DNA from: an uncultured Pseudomonadales bacterium
Lineage (GTDB): Bacteria; Pseudomonadota; Gammaproteobacteria; Pseudomonadales; JAUIET01
DNA length: 57,386 nucleotides
Direction: 5' to 3'
Assembly: GCA_964352475.1 (NCBI GenBank)
Contig: CAYGSL010000023.1
Coordinates: forward strand, 1 to 57,386
Shown: positions 1 to 6,339 of the stretch, piece after piece
How positions within the stretch are numbered: the first letter of the stretch is position 1
How the letters are laid out: each line of letters begins with the position of its first letter
Notes under the pieces: model-generated
Seen by the model: the letters and a program-made list of their open reading frames with translations, nothing else
Database searches by the model: none
What the model was told of the DNA's origin: nothing
Translations under genes and position numbers: made by a program

Positions 1-208
1 CACGAGGCGTTTGCGGCCCAAAGCCCTGGCAGCTTTGCTCGCTCTGAGCATGATCATCGGCCAAAGTTGCAACCGCGAAAAGAGACGTCAGCGTGAACGC
101 AGCTAACACAAACCGCCATCTTTCGATCTGTACTGTTTCCATTGTTGCGGCCGCTGCAACGGCAGGCTGCTTGTTTTCGTTTCTATTGTATCCATAGTGT
201 TTGTGCAT
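1..208 (-). CDS. Delta-class carbonic anhydrase family protein, N-terminal part (runs off the window's left edge)
   Basis: Not in the ORF track. ATG at 208 with GGAGG RBS upstream; open frame to position 1: MHKHYG...RWRFVLAAFTLTSLFAVATLADDHAQSEQSCQGFGPQTPR(D). Signal-peptide-like stretch, then the C-x-GFGPQTPRD motif I recall from bacterial delta-CA (TWCA1-like) homologues. Alternative start at 142. Confidence 0.65.
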   Translation of the reverse strand, partial: MHKHYGYNRNENKQPAVAAAATMETVQIERWRFVLAAFTLTSLFAVATLADDHAQSEQSCQGFGPQTPR

Positions 209-449
209 CGTCTTCCTCCAAAAGCCTTTAGTGGTGTGTTGTTTTTTCTGCAGTAATTAGTTCGGTGACCAATGTTAAGTACGGTGAGTCTAAGTCATTG
301 GTTCACGTGATATTAGTCGATCTAAACTGATGATTGAATCGTTAACTGCGAATTGTTCGAACTACGCATTTGGCTAGACTTCTTAAAGCGGTTTTTCGCT
401 GGTACGAAAACTGTGCAACAGCAACATGATGCCTGTTTGGGAGAAGTCT

Positions 450-1598
450 ATGAATAGCTTGACCGTTGGAATTCTTGGGGCGGGTCAATTGGGCGCTTTC
501 TTGTGTGAAGCGGCGCGTAATCTGGGTTTGCAGACTGTCGTACTCGCGCAGAACCCGAAAGACCCGGCGGTAGCTTTGGCCGACCGCTGCGTTTTCGGCG
601 ATTTGTCCGACCCGGACGCCTTAAAGGAATTACGCCAAATAGCCGACGTCGTCACCTTTGAGCGCGAGGATATCGGCGCCGAAGTGTTGAGAGAGTTGGA
701 ATCTGCTGCGCAGCTTGATTCGTACAGGGTTGCGCCACGACCACATGTGCTTAGATTGCTGCAAGACAAGGCTAAACAAAAGCACTGGTTGGTGCAAAAT
801 GGTTTCCCTACGGCCGCATTTCTTGATGGAGATTTGTTTACACAAGAGCAAATGTTAAAGCAATTTGAATTGCCAATTGTGCAAAAAGCGAAACGCGGTG
901 GGTTTGACGGGCGTGGTGTGCAAATTCTTGACGCATCCAATCTCGATCAGTTTTGGCGTAGCGGAGCGATCGTAGAGCAATGTGTGCCCTATGCGAAAGA
1001 GCTGTCGACCCTGGTTGCCCGTGATGCCTCGGGCAATCTGGCTTTTTACCCGGTAATCGAAGCAATTGCCAAGCCAGGCGAGCAAGTGTTGGATTGCGCT
1101 CTGTCACCGGCAAGAATATCGAAGAGTCAGAGCGCGAAAGCCTTACGACTTGCCGCCAATATTGTCACAAAACTGCAGGGCGTTGGCGTATTCGCCATTG
1201 AAATGTTTCTGACACCCCAGGGAAATCTGCTGGTGAACGAGATATCGCCACGTGTACACAATACCGGACACTTGACCTTGCACGCATCGGAGACCTCACA
1301 ATTCGAGCAGCACTTACGCGCAATCTGTGGCTTGGGGCTAGGGTCTACCCAGCAATCTGTTGCTTCTCTCTGTAAGAATATTCTTTATGACGCTAACCAT
1401 AGCGATTTTGAAGACGGTCCATTTGCCTGTCATCAATTGGGGCAAGGTGTGTGGTTGCACTGGTATGGCAAAGAGCAGCTTACTCAAGGCCGGAAACTTG
1501 GACATATTAGCTGCACCGCCAAATCAGTAGACGAAGCTATTTCATTACTGGAAACCTATCAGTCCCCTGACAATTCTGACAAAGCGCAAGCTGCATGA
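450..1598 (+). CDS. purK: N5-carboxyaminoimidazole ribonucleotide synthase (ATP-grasp)
   Basis: GILGAGQLG, VVTFERE, RGGFDGRG, NEISPRVHNTGH, HWYGKE...GRKLGHI; ATG at 450 after GGAGA RBS; overlaps purE (ATGA). Confidence 0.92.
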   Translation: MNSLTVGILGAGQLGAFLCEAARNLGLQTVVLAQNPKDPAVALADRCVFGDLSDPDALKELRQIADVVTFEREDIGAEVLRELESAAQLDSYRVAPRPHVLRLLQDKAKQKHWLVQNGFPTAAFLDGDLFTQEQMLKQFELPIVQKAKRGGFDGRGVQILDASNLDQFWRSGAIVEQCVPYAKELSTLVARDASGNLAFYPVIEAIAKPGEQVLDCALSPARISKSQSAKALRLAANIVTKLQGVGVFAIEMFLTPQGNLLVNEISPRVHNTGHLTLHASETSQFEQHLRAICGLGLGSTQQSVASLCKNILYDANHSDFEDGPFACHQLGQGVWLHWYGKEQLTQGRKLGHISCTAKSVDEAISLLETYQSPDNSDKAQAA

Positions 1599-2092
1599 CT
1601 GCCATTGCACGCGTTGGCATTGTGATGGGCAGTGACTCTGATTTGCCGGTGATGCAAGCAGCTGCCGATGTGCTGGAAGAATTGAAGGTTAGTTGCACGG
1701 TCGATATTGTCAGCGCGCACCGCACTCCAGATCTACTCTACGATTACGCAAGCAGAGCGGAGGAGCGTGGTTATGAGGTGATCATTGCTGGCGCAGGCGG
1801 GGCCGCACATCTGCCTGGTATGCTGGCGTCAATCAGTTGCCTGCCTGTGATCGGCGTGCCAGTCAGTGCCACAAAACTGGAAGGGCAAGATGCCCTGTTA
1901 TCGATTGTGCAAATGCCCGCAGGTGTGCCGGTTGCTTGCGTAGCAATAGACAACGCGAAAAATGCGGGCATTCTCGCGGCACAGATGGTCAGCATTGCTG
2001 ACCCAGAAGTGCGTGAAAACCTGCGTGCTTTTAAACGCGCCTTGTCAGAGAGTGTTATGCAGAAGGCCGCCCGTATAAGCAGCGGTAAGTAA
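1595..2092 (+). CDS. purE: N5-CAIR mutase
   Basis: MGSDSD, SAHRTP, IIAGAGGAAHLPGM, PVIGVP, SIVQMPAGVPVA. Confidence 0.97.
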   Translation: MTAIARVGIVMGSDSDLPVMQAAADVLEELKVSCTVDIVSAHRTPDLLYDYASRAEERGYEVIIAGAGGAAHLPGMLASISCLPVIGVPVSATKLEGQDALLSIVQMPAGVPVACVAIDNAKNAGILAAQMVSIADPEVRENLRAFKRALSESVMQKAARISSGK

Positions 2093-2098
2093 CAGCGC

Positions 2099-3076
2099 GT
2101 GGATTCACTGTTTTTCAGTAATTTAACATCACCGCCGCTTCTATTCTTTTTGCTTGGCGTGTTCGCGGTTGCGATTCGTTCGGACCTGGATATACCTGAC
2201 CAGGTTGCGAAATTCCTGTCATTGTATCTACTGTTTGCGATTGGTTTTAAAGGCGGCGTTGCTATAGCCGAAAGCGAGCTTACTGTGCTTGTTGCTCGCG
2301 ACTTATTACTGGCGACCGCATTGTCTGCCGTCATTCCATTCTATGTTTACTATGCGGTGAAACGGCAGTTCGGATCGGCCAATGCTGCGGCCACGGCAGC
2401 CACCTATGGCTCAATCAGTGCTGTAACATTTGTTACGGCCATTAGCTATCTGGATGCAGGAGAAATCGAGTGGAGTGGCTATATGGTTGCCGCGATGGCC
2501 TTGATGGAATCACCTGCAATTATTGTAGGGTTGTTGTTGTACTACCGCAGTCAGTCCAGTGTGGACGAGAATAGTAGTGCAACTGTGGGCGAGATGGTCC
2601 ATGAGTCCTTGAGCAATGGTTCTGTCTTGTTGATAATCGGTAGCCTGGTGATTGGGTGGATATCCGGGCCCGCCGGCCTCGCTCAAGTCGACTTACTCGT
2701 CAAGGACCTGTTCATAGGCGTTTTGTGCCTGTTTCTACTTGATATGGGTATTGTTGCCGCCAGAAGACTGCAAGATCTGGGTAGCGCGGAAGTAAACATC
2801 TCTAAGCTGCTTTTCTGGGGTCTATTGTTACCTCTGGTCAATGCCGTTGTCGCATTAATGCTGGTTGTTGGATTCAGCCTTACTGAAGGCAATGCTCTTC
2901 TACTGGTTGTTCTGGCCGCGAGTGGCTCCTACATCGCGGTGCCAGCTGCAATGAGACTTGCTTTGCCGCAGGCTAGCCCCAGTGTTTACTTACCAATGTC
3001 GCTGGCGATCAGCTTTCCATTCAATCTGGTCATAGGAATACCACTGTATCATCAGCTCATAAACTGGCTTGCCTAG
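2099..3076 (+). CDS. sbtA: Sodium-dependent bicarbonate transporter family permease (short SbtA form)
   Basis: NLTSPPLLFFLLG, YLLFAIGFKGG, YGSISAVTF, MESPAII, SYIAVPA, FPFN..IGIPLY; about 10 TM; followed by a PII-like gene. Confidence 0.9.
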   Translation: MDSLFFSNLTSPPLLFFLLGVFAVAIRSDLDIPDQVAKFLSLYLLFAIGFKGGVAIAESELTVLVARDLLLATALSAVIPFYVYYAVKRQFGSANAAATAATYGSISAVTFVTAISYLDAGEIEWSGYMVAAMALMESPAIIVGLLLYYRSQSSVDENSSATVGEMVHESLSNGSVLLIIGSLVIGWISGPAGLAQVDLLVKDLFIGVLCLFLLDMGIVAARRLQDLGSAEVNISKLLFWGLLLPLVNAVVALMLVVGFSLTEGNALLLVVLAASGSYIAVPAAMRLALPQASPSVYLPMSLAISFPFNLVIGIPLYHQLINWLA

Positions 3077-3091
3077 AGAGGTTGCCACTGT

Positions 3092-3388
3092 ATGAAACCA
3101 TGTAAGCGTATTGAAATTGTTATAGAACACCCTCTAGCGCCAAGACTTGCCAAATTGCTGGTAAAACTAGGTGCGCCTGGTTACACAATGATTGATGGTG
3201 CGAGCGGTTGTGGTGACCGTGGCACGCGACGGGCGGATGAGATTACTGGTATCTCCAGCAACAGCGTTTTTATTATTGCCTGTGATGATGCTGAGCTTAT
3301 CGATGCAATTGTAGAGGGAATTAGGCCAATATTGTCCATATCCGGTGGCATGTGCTTAATCTCCGATGCACAATGGGTAAGGCACTGA
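3092..3388 (+). CDS. sbtB: PII-like regulator of SbtA
   Basis: 98 aa, KRIEIVIE...GYT...SGCGDRG PII-like pattern; directly downstream of sbtA; GAGG RBS. Confidence 0.85.
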   Translation: MKPCKRIEIVIEHPLAPRLAKLLVKLGAPGYTMIDGASGCGDRGTRRADEITGISSNSVFIIACDDAELIDAIVEGIRPILSISGGMCLISDAQWVRH

Positions 3389-3419
3389 GGCCGATCAGTT
3401 AAGGTTAAGCAACACACCT

Positions 3420-4631
3420 ATGCAAAATGAAACGACAAGCAACGACACGAATCAGCCACTATTAGCCGCGGTCAGAGAGTTCATGCGCATGGAGTCTACT
3501 GGCGGTGTACTGCTGTTATGCGCCGCTGTACTGGCGATGATTGCTGCCAATACTTCCCTGTCTGCTTATTACGACTCTTTGCTCGACACCTTGGTCGCAG
3601 TCACCGTCGGTGATTTTGCTATTTCCAAGCCTTTGCTACTGTGGATCAATGACGGTCTTATGGCCATCTTCTTCTTCCTGATTGGTTTGGAAATCAAGCG
3701 CGAGGTAATGGAAGGGGAGTTGTCATCGCCTTCGCAGATAATTCTGCCGGGCTTTGGCGCACTTGGTGGCATGTTGGTGCCCGCTGGTATCTATGCATGG
3801 CTCAATTGGAATGACCCAATTGCGCTAGATGGCTGGGCGATACCTGTTGCAACCGACATCGCTTTCGCTCTCGGCCTGTTAAGCGTTTTTGGTCGCAGGG
3901 TTCCAACGTCGCTGAAAGTATTCTTGCTGACGCTGGCAATCTTTGATGATCTCGCCGCCATTATCATTATCGCAATTTTCTATTCGGCGGATATTTCTCT
4001 CACCGCACTTACGATTGGTAGCATTGCATTAGCGGTGGCTGTGATTATGAACAGAACCGGCGTTACTCGCACATCCAGCTACATTTTTGTTGGCCTCATC
4101 CTTTGGGTGGCAGTGCTTAAGTCTGGTGTGCATGCAACCCTGGCCGGCGTTTTGATTGCGTTTTGTATTCCCATGCGCGATGAGAAAGGTCATTCACCTC
4201 TGCAAGATTTGGAACACAATCTTCACGGGCCAGTGGCGTTCGCAATACTGCCGATTTTTGCATTTGCTAACGCAGGTCTCGCCTTGGGTACCATGTCGAT
4301 GGATGATTTATTTCATCCAGTCACCTTGGGTATCACCAGTGGGCTGCTGTTGGGCAAACCAATAGGCATTCTGGCGTTTGTTGGTCTTGCAGTAGCGCTT
4401 AAGTTGGTTGCTCTGCCAAAGGATGTGAGCTGGGCTCAGTTGTTGGGAGTTTCCGCGGCGTGTGGTATCGGTTTCACCATGAGTCTGTTTATTGCCAGTT
4501 TGGCTTTCGAGCATGGCAGTGGCGCATATTTCCAGGGCGATCGCCTGGGTATTTTGTTAGGCTCAATTCTATCAGCAATGCTTGCATATCTGGTGCTGCA
4601 ATCCAGTTTGCCAAAAGAAGATAGTGCGTAA
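3420..4631 (+). CDS. nhaA: Na+/H+ antiporter NhaA
   Basis: WINDGLMAIFFFLIGLEIKRE, GWAIPVATDIAFALG, LAIFDDL, SGVHATLAG, GIGFTMSLFI. Confidence 0.96.
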   Translation: MQNETTSNDTNQPLLAAVREFMRMESTGGVLLLCAAVLAMIAANTSLSAYYDSLLDTLVAVTVGDFAISKPLLLWINDGLMAIFFFLIGLEIKREVMEGELSSPSQIILPGFGALGGMLVPAGIYAWLNWNDPIALDGWAIPVATDIAFALGLLSVFGRRVPTSLKVFLLTLAIFDDLAAIIIIAIFYSADISLTALTIGSIALAVAVIMNRTGVTRTSSYIFVGLILWVAVLKSGVHATLAGVLIAFCIPMRDEKGHSPLQDLEHNLHGPVAFAILPIFAFANAGLALGTMSMDDLFHPVTLGITSGLLLGKPIGILAFVGLAVALKLVALPKDVSWAQLLGVSAACGIGFTMSLFIASLAFEHGSGAYFQGDRLGILLGSILSAMLAYLVLQSSLPKEDSA

Positions 4632-4633
4632 GT

Positions 4634-5035
4634 CTATGTGTCAGTTCGACACATATCGGCCATAGGTTTGAAAGCGTCCATAAGTGCTCGTTGCCAGTGC
4701 GGGTCCAAATCACTTTGATCCAAAGCGTGTTGCATACACATTAACCATTGGTCACGTTCTGCGTCGCCAATTGCGAACGATGAGTGTGCAGCGGGTATCA
4801 CTACTGAACCGAACTTTTCCTGGTAGCGTCGCGGGCCGCCCATCCAGCCGATAAGAAACGTTGCCAGCTTGTCTATCATGGGCTCCAGGTCGCCTTTATG
4901 CATTTCGCGTATGGGCTTGCACTCCGGTAGTTCATCCATTTTTTGGTAAAACACTCTGACCATCTGACGCACCGCAGCTTCGCTGCCAAATGCTTCAAAC
5001 GGAGTAGCCGCATCTGATGTTGAAGCTGCGGTCAT
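4634..5035 (-). CDS. glbO: Group II truncated haemoglobin (trHbO-like)
   Basis: VRVFYQKM, FLIGWMGGP.RY, proximal His in PAAHSSFAI, ERDQWL.CM; last gene of the kshA operon. Confidence 0.85.
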   Translation of the reverse strand: MTAASTSDAATPFEAFGSEAAVRQMVRVFYQKMDELPECKPIREMHKGDLEPMIDKLATFLIGWMGGPRRYQEKFGSVVIPAAHSSFAIGDAERDQWLMCMQHALDQSDLDPHWQRALMDAFKPMADMCRTDT

Positions 5036-5078
5036 TGCGACAAGTTGCCCGATGACAACACTGAGCTACAATCCGCAA

Positions 5079-6293
5079 TCACAGGAACGTATCATCGTTT
5101 TCCAGGCCCATCATCGTCCTACCCAGATTCCGACCAATCTTTCCAATGTTGTTTGCAACATGGTTTCTACCGGCATTGATATCCAGCCAGGCACGATTGA
5201 TGGGGTGGTCGCGATAAATACCTTGCGCACCTGAGAACACGTAGAGTTCGTTCACTGCTTCAGCGCAGCGAGGTGCCACCTGGGCAGCGTCGAAACGCAT
5301 CTTTAAACGTTGATCCAGGTCTACTTGCTTACCCGAGGCGGCGTGCTCCAGCATAATGTCGAAATTCTTGTACATTATGGTTTTACATTCGTCGATAGTG
5401 GCTCTGGCGCGAGCAACTGATAACTGCGCCCCAGGGTCTAACGAAACATTCTTGCCGTCATTCAAACCAACTCGGTCTCGATTAATTTTTACAAAAGCGT
5501 CCAGCGCGCTTTGCAAAGCCCCGATTGAGGAGGAGCTTACGGCGCGCACAAAAATCTGACCAAATGGTATGTGATATAAAGGCGCAGAGTTCAGTGCATT
5601 CCCAGGACTCTGGCAGGCAAACCCGTCCAGCGCACGGTGTGTGCGGTGTTCCGGCACGAATTTGTTCTCAACCACAATATCATTACTTCCGGTACCCTCC
5701 AGACCGCTCACGTTCCAGTTATCAACAATGGTGTAATCGCTGCGCGGGACCAGGAATGTGCGATAGTCTGGCGCTTCCCCAGGTTCGCCTCGAGGCACCA
5801 TGGCGCCCAGGAAAACCCAGTCACAATGTTTGGAGCCGCTGGAAAAACTCCAGTGTCCCGACAATTGATAGCCGCCGTCTGTGGGTACTACTTTGCCTAC
5901 CGGCATATACGATGACGAGACTAATGTGCTGGCATCCTTGCCCCAAACGTCTCTTTGCGCCTGCTCCGGGTACAGTGCTAATTGCCAATTGTGAATGGCA
6001 ACCACACCCAGCACCCAGGCCGCTGACATGCAACCTTCTGCCAGTTTGATTTGCACGTCAAAAAAATCTTTTGGTGCTAACTCAAGGCCGCCATGGCGTA
6101 GTGGTTGCAGAATTTTGAAAAAACCAGCGGCTTGCATTTCGTCGATGGTTAGTTGTGGCAGTTTGCCCAATCGCGCTGTCTCTTGTGCTCTTGAGCGCAG
6201 AGCAGGAACCATAGCTTCCGCACTTGCAAGCAGTTTGTTGCGCATGTCGTCTCGGCTATAGGTTGTTTCAGTAGTGTGAAGTGCTTGGGCCAT
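5079..6293 (-). CDS. hsaA: Flavin-dependent monooxygenase oxygenase component, HsaA/TesA1-like (3-hydroxy-9,10-seco-steroid 4-hydroxylase)
   Basis: Acyl-CoA-dehydrogenase fold: WVLGVVAIHNWQLAL, VWG.D...VSSSYMP, GHWSFSSG..HCDW, GLEGTGSND; ATG at 6293 with AGGAG RBS. Confidence 0.82.
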   Translation of the reverse strand: MAQALHTTETTYSRDDMRNKLLASAEAMVPALRSRAQETARLGKLPQLTIDEMQAAGFFKILQPLRHGGLELAPKDFFDVQIKLAEGCMSAAWVLGVVAIHNWQLALYPEQAQRDVWGKDASTLVSSSYMPVGKVVPTDGGYQLSGHWSFSSGSKHCDWVFLGAMVPRGEPGEAPDYRTFLVPRSDYTIVDNWNVSGLEGTGSNDIVVENKFVPEHRTHRALDGFACQSPGNALNSAPLYHIPFGQIFVRAVSSSSIGALQSALDAFVKINRDRVGLNDGKNVSLDPGAQLSVARARATIDECKTIMYKNFDIMLEHAASGKQVDLDQRLKMRFDAAQVAPRCAEAVNELYVFSGAQGIYRDHPINRAWLDINAGRNHVANNIGKIGRNLGRTMMGLENDDTFL

Positions 6294-6339
6294 GATAGGT
6301 GCTCCTGGTAGCAATGAGTCAGTAGATTAGGGATTCGTA

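Follow-up and report, generated by a model that had tools for sequence, protein, structure and literature searches.

The stretch of DNA analysed here (the window) comprises the first 57,386 nt of contig CAYGSL010000023.1 (C23) of an uncultured Pseudomonadales bacterium (assembly GCA_964352475.1, genome G000), which begins with a compact run of genes in which an Sbt_1-family transporter, of the family to which cyanobacterial SbtA belongs, stands directly behind the purine synthesis genes purK and purE. The first gene of the run, purK (426-1598, +), scores 338 bits against a cut-off of 318.4 with the equivalog model TIGR01161, also matches PF02222, PF22660 and PF17769, and encodes an ATP-grasp domain together with the PurK C-terminal domain; its start is probably the ATG at 450 rather than 426, since an alignment with five genus-level relatives begins there. 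It overlaps by 4 nt with purE (1595-2092, +; TIGR01162, 208.7 bits against a cut-off of 149.6), which is assigned to class I (N5-carboxyaminoimidazole ribonucleotide, or N5-CAIR, mutase) from a score above the equivalog cut-off and its position adjoining purK. The transporter gene (2099-3076, +; 325 aa) matches PF05982 with an E-value of 9.7e-110 and 367.1 bits against a cut-off of 27, covering positions 1-307 of the 308 in the profile. A gene for a PII-like protein of 98 aa (3092-3388, +; PF00543, E 3.4e-12) starts 15 nt downstream of it, and the run ends with nhaA (3420-4631, +; 403 aa; TIGR00773, 476.8 bits against a cut-off of 254). Divergent from purK, the minus strand carries the 5' end (69 codons, 1..208) of a gene for a delta-class carbonic anhydrase (delta-CA), the remainder of which lies on another contig, at G000:C16:80327-81067. 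The distances between successive genes from purK to nhaA are -4, 6, 15 and 31 nt in the open reading frame (ORF) list, exactly as stated in an earlier reading made from the letters alone (hereafter the sequence-only reading), and family scans confirmed all six of its gene identifications, that of the delta-CA through the part on C16.

The divergent intergenic region between the delta-CA gene and purK (209..449) is presumed to hold a promoter or operator. Two blocks upstream of purK, at about 312-319 and 349-359, are conserved in six genus-level relatives, one of which is G150, a relative without the transporter. A PurR-type box was not recognised by eye in 209-449, where no motif search was made. 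Consensus scans returned 4 promoter-like sites against 4.9 expected from shuffling, none of them in 209-449, and 7 terminator-like sites against 7.1 expected. There was no Rfam match at E-values up to 1 over positions 1-5200, and hence no known riboswitch or leader in that interval.

PurK (N5-CAIR synthase) catalyses a bicarbonate- and ATP-dependent step whose substrate is bicarbonate and not CO2; no other step of purine synthesis consumes bicarbonate. At the pH of seawater, bicarbonate exceeds CO2 by about two orders of magnitude. In the source genome (97.6% complete, 133 contigs), genome-wide tblastn found purK, the Sbt_1 gene, this type of PII-like gene and nhaA in one copy each, and all four copies lie in the window. 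Because the window purK is the only one in the genome, the transporter sits in a housekeeping operon. The question of a second purEK pair, raised along with the sequence-only reading, has a divided answer: no second purK exists in the genome, but a second, lone purE was found at G000:C2:38066-38533 (L003:5052-5558), between dprA and tsaC and without an adjoining purK, 50% identical to the window purE and scoring 193.7 bits with TIGR01162. The congener G062 has no purE besides the transporter-linked one. In all five other genomes checked, nothing but the linked purK matches near the TIGR01161 cut-off, and in three of those five the linked purE has no second copy.

The linkage recurs well beyond this genome. 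Among 201 evenly sampled genomes of the order, 62 had a PF05982 match above the cut-off, and 60 loci were taken with flanks of 7 kb on either side and annotated by profiles built from the window proteins, leaving out G004, which has a transporter remnant, and G182, whose match is a fragment of 43 residues at the end of a contig. At 25 of these 60 loci the Sbt_1 gene has both purE and purK no farther away than about 2.1 kb, and at 26 no farther than 4.7 kb, and the linked loci span 17 family codes; a linkage confined to this one genome would have refuted the sequence-only reading, and it is instead present in 26 of 60. The commonest gene order is transporter-purE-purK, beside which purE-purK-transporter, purK-purE-transporter (the group of the window) and one divergent case occur. 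A PII-like gene follows the transporter at 17 of the 60 loci, and nhaA is near it at 7. In the class sample, Sbt_1 was present in 51 of 401 genomes; at 55 loci from 50 other genomes, taken with flanks of 4 kb on either side, purE and purK adjoin the transporter in 3, a PII-like gene in 48 and nhaA in 2.

Two wider sets comprised the best 80 relatives of the window transporter in 185,579 species genomes (wide I) and the best 80 relatives of a transporter from the second of the two clades described below (wide II). In wide I, a purK-purE-transporter-PII arrangement occurs at 4 of 80 loci, all from metagenome-assembled genomes (MAGs) of Pseudomonadales or Gammaproteobacteria, and the remaining proteins, from cyanobacteria, Bacteroidota, Planctomycetota and others, are without purEK. 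In wide II, purE lies in the flanks of 14 of 80 loci, 13 of which also have purK. By record title, these carriers include an Alteromonadaceae isolate, a Kangiella MAG, a Pseudohongiella isolate and Chromatiales, as well as Thiohalomonadaceae, Rhodocyclaceae, Burkholderiales and Nitrosospira MAGs, one Planctomycetota MAG, and a MAG labelled Akkermansia muciniphila with the order purK-purE-transporter-PII. The linked environmental MAGs L232 and L266 are titled Klebsiella pneumoniae and Akkermansia muciniphila, labels that look doubtful because their transporters and PurK proteins cluster with environmental Proteobacteria or within the cassette clade of PurK described below. In a Phycisphaeraceae MAG (L174:1542-4436), a purK-like ATP-grasp gene has two Sbt_1 paralogues in tandem downstream of it, with a PII-like gene behind each. 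Overall, the linkage is concentrated in the order of the window and sporadic elsewhere.

Phylogenies of the transporter and of PurK bear on how often this association was formed. The trees were built by quick search under LG+G4 with SH-aLRT values (Shimodaira-Hasegawa-like approximate likelihood ratio test) as the only support measure; the first transporter tree left out L098 (a duplicate of L049) and the fragments L084 and L097, and the wide and class sets were thinned. The transporter trees were midpoint-rooted without a canonical SbtA outgroup because a search for a separate long-form SbtA in five cyanobacterial genomes returned short-form-like matches only. The 92-row transporter tree splits into two deep clades (support 96). 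The purK-purE-transporter group of the window (8 rows, support 89) falls in clade I together with cyanobacterial and Bacteroidota proteins, and all purE-purK arrangements fall in clade II. On the 137-row tree, linked or unlinked status requires 21 changes, at least 16 of which are forced by well-supported branches, and the constraint that the 44 linked rows be monophyletic is rejected by an approximately unbiased (AU) test (delta lnL 1742, p 0.0004). On these trees, linkage between Sbt_1 and purEK has arisen several times independently. In the PurK tree, the purK genes of all purK-purE-transporter cassettes form one clade (13 rows, support 98) apart from the clade holding most purK genes of the order; among the members of this cassette clade are G417, which belongs to a different family of the class, and a Verrucomicrobiota-labelled MAG. 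Such a pattern fits a cassette inherited or transferred as a unit.

These counts also bear on a reading in which the run is an ion and pH homeostasis module, handling Na+, H+ and bicarbonate in an alkaline and salty habitat, that merely travels with purKE, so that its position is metabolically meaningless. The gene nhaA is the only NhaA gene of the genome and encodes a general housekeeping antiporter, and most Sbt_1 genes do not lie next to purEK (34 of 60 loci in the order, 52 of 55 in the class and 76 of 80 in wide I); two beta-class carbonic anhydrases (beta-CAs) are already present in the genome, and the presence of Sbt_1 across the order is unrelated to that of beta-CA. However, by our own estimate the chance of one particular pair of genes lying within about 2 kb of a given gene is around 0.1% in a 4-Mb genome, against the 25 of 60 observed, and passive travel agrees poorly with four gene orders spread over two deep clades, with a single clade for the linked genes rejected. 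The other recurrent neighbours of Sbt_1, moreover, are users or makers of bicarbonate, namely pyruvate carboxylase subunits, beta-CA and a carboxysome operon. We regard the homeostasis reading as unlikely.

In Pseudomonas and Stutzerimonas, genes for the two subunits of a pyruvate carboxylase precede the transporter-PII pair. In Stutzerimonas stutzeri 24a75 (L256:1520-7936), genes for a biotin carboxylase, a carboxyltransferase/biotinyl subunit (with PYC_OADA, HMGL-like and Biotin_lipoyl domains), Sbt_1, PII, a glutaminase and a beta-CA follow one another in this order, and Sbt_1-PII also lies directly downstream of pyruvate-carboxylase-like subunits in L251, L261, L267, L060, L063 and L065. 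A biotin carboxylase gene is near Sbt_1 at 4 of 60 loci in the order and 4 of 80 in wide II, and a beta-CA gene at 0 of 60 in the order, 16 of 80 in wide I and 8 of 80 in wide II. In a Cyanobium sp. MAG (L144:6968-10348), a short-form Sbt_1 gene and a gene for a 93-aa PII-like protein lie immediately upstream of csoS1-rbcL; this pair was considered as orthologous to SbtA/SbtB of Cyanobium PCC 7001, an assignment that was dropped since the PII-like protein has no PDB match at an E-value of 0.001 and so does not belong to the characterised SbtB type. A role for the transporter in replacing beta-CA was likewise rejected, as Sbt_1 occurs in 6 of the 19 order genomes that lack a beta-CA match and in 56 of the 182 that have one.

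The transporter itself is presumed, from its family and its gene context, to be a Na+/bicarbonate symporter. Its only solved relative is SbtA of Synechocystis (7cye and others; E 1.9e-22), to which it aligns in two stretches, with residues 156-197 of the 7cye chain unmatched between them. It is a short form of 325 aa, compared with about 374 aa in canonical SbtA, and lacks the segment that SbtA carries between its repeats. The crossover motifs Y-G-S-x-S-x-x-T and S-A/G-S-Y-I-A-x-P are invariant or nearly so in a 16-row alignment. According to the SbtA study (PMC8352866), Na+ is held in SbtA by main-chain atoms of F110, G111, A112, A320 and S322, and bicarbonate was placed by a docking model at S114, Y140, S324 and S327, residues that were also mutated. 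Two of these four residues are identical in the window protein (S114 corresponds to S107 and S324 to S277) and invariant in the 16-row alignment; the other two differ, Y140 being replaced by Met133 and S327 by Ala280.

This comparison leaves room for a reading in which the family name misleads and the Sbt_1 protein carries another solute, for example a small anion or a compound related to the purine pathway. The distance from the sole structurally studied SbtA and the difference at two of the four docked ligands would both suit it, as would the replacement of SbtA D325 by an invariant Tyr and the membership of the family in the broad CPA/AT transporter group. On the other hand, the link is specifically to purE-purK, the carboxylation step, these being the only pur genes looked for, and further links exist to subunits of pyruvate carboxylase, to beta-CA and delta-CA, and to a carboxysome/RuBisCO operon. 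The nearest solved relatives of the PII partner point the same way, being 5d4n/5d4l and SbtB, and a review (PMC10880623) credits the SbtA-family proteins of autotrophic Proteobacteria with activity on bicarbonate. Transport of a different solute is accordingly judged quite improbable.

The PII-like protein is presumed to act as a regulator or plug of the transporter. Its best solved relatives are 5d4n/5d4l (E 9e-8 over 93 residues), which we take to be the carboxysome-associated CPII of Thiomonas intermedia, although the PDB titles say 'P-II' only; CPII accompanies a DAB-type CO2 pump in the carboxysome locus of a chemoautotroph. The match to SbtB (slr1513) is weaker, with an E-value of about 1e-4. 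The protein has a conserved T-loop motif G-x-G-D-R-G and a C-terminal motif GG-x-C-L-x-S-D, and it ends at residue 98 (...SDAQWVRH), without the Cys-containing C-terminal loop of SbtB. In slr1513 this redox loop contains a bond between Cys105 and Cys110, as described in PMC8352866. CPII binds bicarbonate, which alters its affinity for nucleotides, according to a preprint (bioRxiv 10.1101/762807). A predicted 1:1 complex of the transporter with the PII-like protein scored 0.02 against a mark of 0.32, a result that speaks neither for nor against binding.

On the other side of purK, the 69 delta-CA codons in the window (208..2, minus strand) match no family by themselves. The first 55 nt of contig C23, where the window starts, recur without a difference as the final 55 nt of C16, and the frame running off C16 (247 aa) has 18 residues in common with the window ORF. 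The part on C16 matches PF10563, 'Delta carbonic anhydrase', with an E-value of 3.6e-74 and 249.2 bits against a cut-off of 26.3. The join of C16 to C23 is regarded as sound because the same divergent pair of delta-CA and purK genes occurs on unbroken contigs of three near relatives (L005/L051, L006 and L186). In 16 delta-CA homologues from the order, His46, His48, His53, His107 and His231 and four Cys residues are invariant, candidate metal ligands among them, and all 16 have N-termini resembling signal peptides, two of them lipobox-like (judged by eye), which suggests that the enzyme is exported and extracytoplasmic. Among the 201 order genomes, 25 have the gene, mostly at a site away from purK, and it occurs in 0 of 14 model control genomes. 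The idea that delta-CA travels with the transporter in general was rejected: the two genes lie far apart on the same contig in G192, G084, G092 and G051, and on different contigs in G135, G175, G045, G093 and G187. Beyond the delta-CA gene, the end of C16 carries a gene for a homologue of the Rap1a-like immunity protein (L002:327-797, -; PF18602, E 9e-11) and a cytochrome c' gene (L002:2-307, -); the Rap1a-like region is retained in G150, where delta-CA is a remnant.

G150, a congener that is 96% complete, has lost the accessory genes together. It has no match to Sbt_1 and none to PF10563, and purK-purE are kept. Its purK-purE block aligns to window positions 283-2070 and is followed, about 120 nt on, by a homologue of window 3984-4616, which is the 3' third of nhaA, so that the transporter gene, the PII-like gene and the 5' two thirds of nhaA are gone; on the other side of purK-purE, delta-CA is reduced to a remnant. 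Because the purK of G150 nests inside the genus clade, this is a case of secondary loss on both sides of a retained purK-purE. In G004, a decayed transporter remnant lies beside purE-purK, and G108, from the same family, has the arrangement intact.

The host itself is most readily seen as a heterotroph, because its genome, at 97.6% completeness, gave no match to the RuBisCO large subunit and none to DabA, and because a gene for an HsaA-like flavin monooxygenase lies next door. This gene (5079-6314, -; NF045629, 404.7 bits, below the cut-off of 450) hints at steroid or aromatic catabolism; it adjoins a gene for a bacterial-type globin (4634-5035, -; PF01152, E 6e-27) that converges on nhaA across a 2-nt gap. 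With purK the sole copy in the genome and RuBisCO without a match, the proposal in the sequence-only reading that the run feeds a housekeeping carboxylation rather than RuBisCO is kept as the probable one.

The same reading spoke of a mini carbon-concentrating system, and in its full form this would be a genuine concentrating mechanism, in which bicarbonate is pumped far above equilibrium for a PurK of poor affinity and the PII-like protein closes an adenylate loop. The parts list does resemble the uptake half of the mechanism by which cyanobacteria concentrate CO2, with an external carbonic anhydrase, an Sbt-type importer, a PII-like regulator and Na+ extrusion, and the accessory parts were lost together in G150. 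However, the genome encodes two beta-CAs with hydrophilic N-termini and without signal peptides, which are presumably cytoplasmic and, if expressed, would let an accumulated pool leak away as CO2; there is also no compartment, the genome has no match to RuBisCO or DabA and the locus no carboxysome shell gene, and the PII-like protein lacks the C-terminal loop of SbtB. A true concentrating mechanism is therefore considered very unlikely. We do not retain the word 'concentrating', and treat an adenylate feedback loop through the PII-like protein as speculation, because of the beta-CAs, the majority of Sbt_1 genes that are unlinked and the narrow links of delta-CA and nhaA. 'Supply' describes the module better, and we read it as a supply line for a housekeeping carboxylation.

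We therefore favour, as the probable though by no means assured reading, that the run is a Na+-coupled bicarbonate supply for PurK, most likely organised as one operon. The recurrent linkage, together with the presence of the sole purK in the same operon, supports a functional connection of the transporter with the step that PurK catalyses. Bicarbonate supply is the best explanation because of the tight spacing, the single purK and the repeated independent recruitment of the transporter near purEK, and also because of the parallel recruitment beside pyruvate carboxylase and because the accessory genes were lost jointly. We infer which substrate is carried and in which direction, as well as co-transcription, the binding of the PII-like protein to the transporter and the role of the carbonic anhydrase. 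The Sbt_1 importer would bring bicarbonate in with Na+ and so provide for PurK, the only copy in the cell, and would be gated by the PII-like protein in the way that SbtA is by SbtB. NhaA would expel the co-imported Na+ and bring protons back in, and the delta-CA, if periplasmic, would hydrate CO2 at the cell surface, including respiratory CO2 leaking from the cell, to bicarbonate for uptake.

Several observations weigh against a supply line to PurK. No measured substrate was found for any member of either transporter clade, the only solved relative is the distant SbtA of Synechocystis, and half of its docked bicarbonate ligands differ in the window protein. The two cytoplasmic-looking beta-CAs could make bicarbonate from CO2, and the lack of any excess of Sbt_1 in genomes without beta-CA (6 of 19 against 56 of 182) suggests that the transporter is not a substitute for a carbonic anhydrase. 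Sbt_1 stands away from purEK at most loci in the order, the class and wide I alike. The evidence for co-transcription is the spacing of the genes. In the AU test, the group was defined after the first tree had been seen, and its members are kin and not independent. Finally, the complete module has a narrow base: although the link between transporter and purEK recurs, delta-CA adjoins purK in a single genus, that of the window, and nhaA is near the transporter at 7 of 60 loci in the order.

It is already known that heterotrophs need bicarbonate and can use dissolved inorganic carbon (DIC) transporters. In the review (PMC10880623), purK is tied to growth at low CO2, and DIC transporter families are described as widespread in heterotrophs; heterologous DIC transporters relieve the 'bicarbonate starvation' of a carbonic anhydrase mutant, as reported in another preprint (bioRxiv 10.1101/2024.05.07.593039). 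The new element is that, on several occasions, an Sbt-type transporter has been wired into the operon of one named client. The sequence-only reading knew of no account of its arrangement, and we likewise found no description of a linkage of Sbt with purEK or with pyruvate carboxylase in the full-text literature, a scope in which supplements and subscription journals were not covered; the preprint 10.1101/072470 does not contain the words bicarbonate, carbonic anhydrase, purK or purE.

Inorganic-carbon transporters have been studied almost only within autotrophic CO2-concentrating mechanisms, and the roles of their homologues in heterotrophs are largely open. The recurrent link to purEK gives a concrete client enzyme for the Sbt_1 of heterotrophs, with which the pyruvate carboxylase link in Pseudomonas and Stutzerimonas agrees, and suggests that marine heterotrophs can run short of bicarbonate for making nucleotides. 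More boldly, pairs of Sbt_1 and PII might be dedicated bicarbonate feeders that have been repeatedly plugged into the ATP-grasp carboxylase operons of heterotrophs, many times for purEK and at least once for pyruvate carboxylase; the lineage of the window would then hold the complete cassette, with its own PurK lineage, a periplasmic delta-CA, an importer, a PII sensor and Na+ recycling, and its PII-like protein would read adenylates as well as bicarbonate, giving purine output a feedback on supply. We hold this extended proposal to be doubtful. The locus further draws attention to the delta-class carbonic anhydrases of bacteria, and short Sbt-type transporters with natural PII partners are on offer for engineering work. 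Culturable carriers, by record title, are a Kangiella MAG, Pseudohongiella sp. O18, Alteromonadaceae bacterium Bs31 and Stutzerimonas stutzeri 24a75.

Among known systems, DIC uptake of the DAB/MpsAB type and supply by carbonic anhydrase resemble the proposed function in that non-autotrophs need bicarbonate for their biosynthetic carboxylases. However, these systems are not described as wired into one pathway, whereas the transporter gene of the present locus and its relatives lies inside, or directly beside, the client's operon; Sbt_1 also coexists with beta-CA rather than replacing it. The delta-CA shares with the diatom enzyme TWCA1 (PF10563) a strong family match, the conserved His and Cys residues and, judging by the signal peptides, an extracytoplasmic location, but the protein at the window locus is a bacterial homologue; we know of no enzymatic characterisation of bacterial delta-CAs. 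CPII, the best solved match of the PII-like protein, is likewise a PII-type sensor tied to inorganic-carbon uptake, although its counterpart in the window stands beside an Sbt_1 transporter within a purine operon. A further parallel is the SbtA-SbtB pair of cyanobacteria (slr1512/slr1513; 7cye, 7cyf, 7egk), with which the window shares the PF05982 family, recognisable Na+/bicarbonate crossover motifs and a small PII-fold gene directly downstream of the transporter, here with Na+ extrusion encoded nearby. Besides the sequence differences given above, they differ in the client, which in the window would be PurK in a heterotroph without RuBisCO and not a carboxysome.

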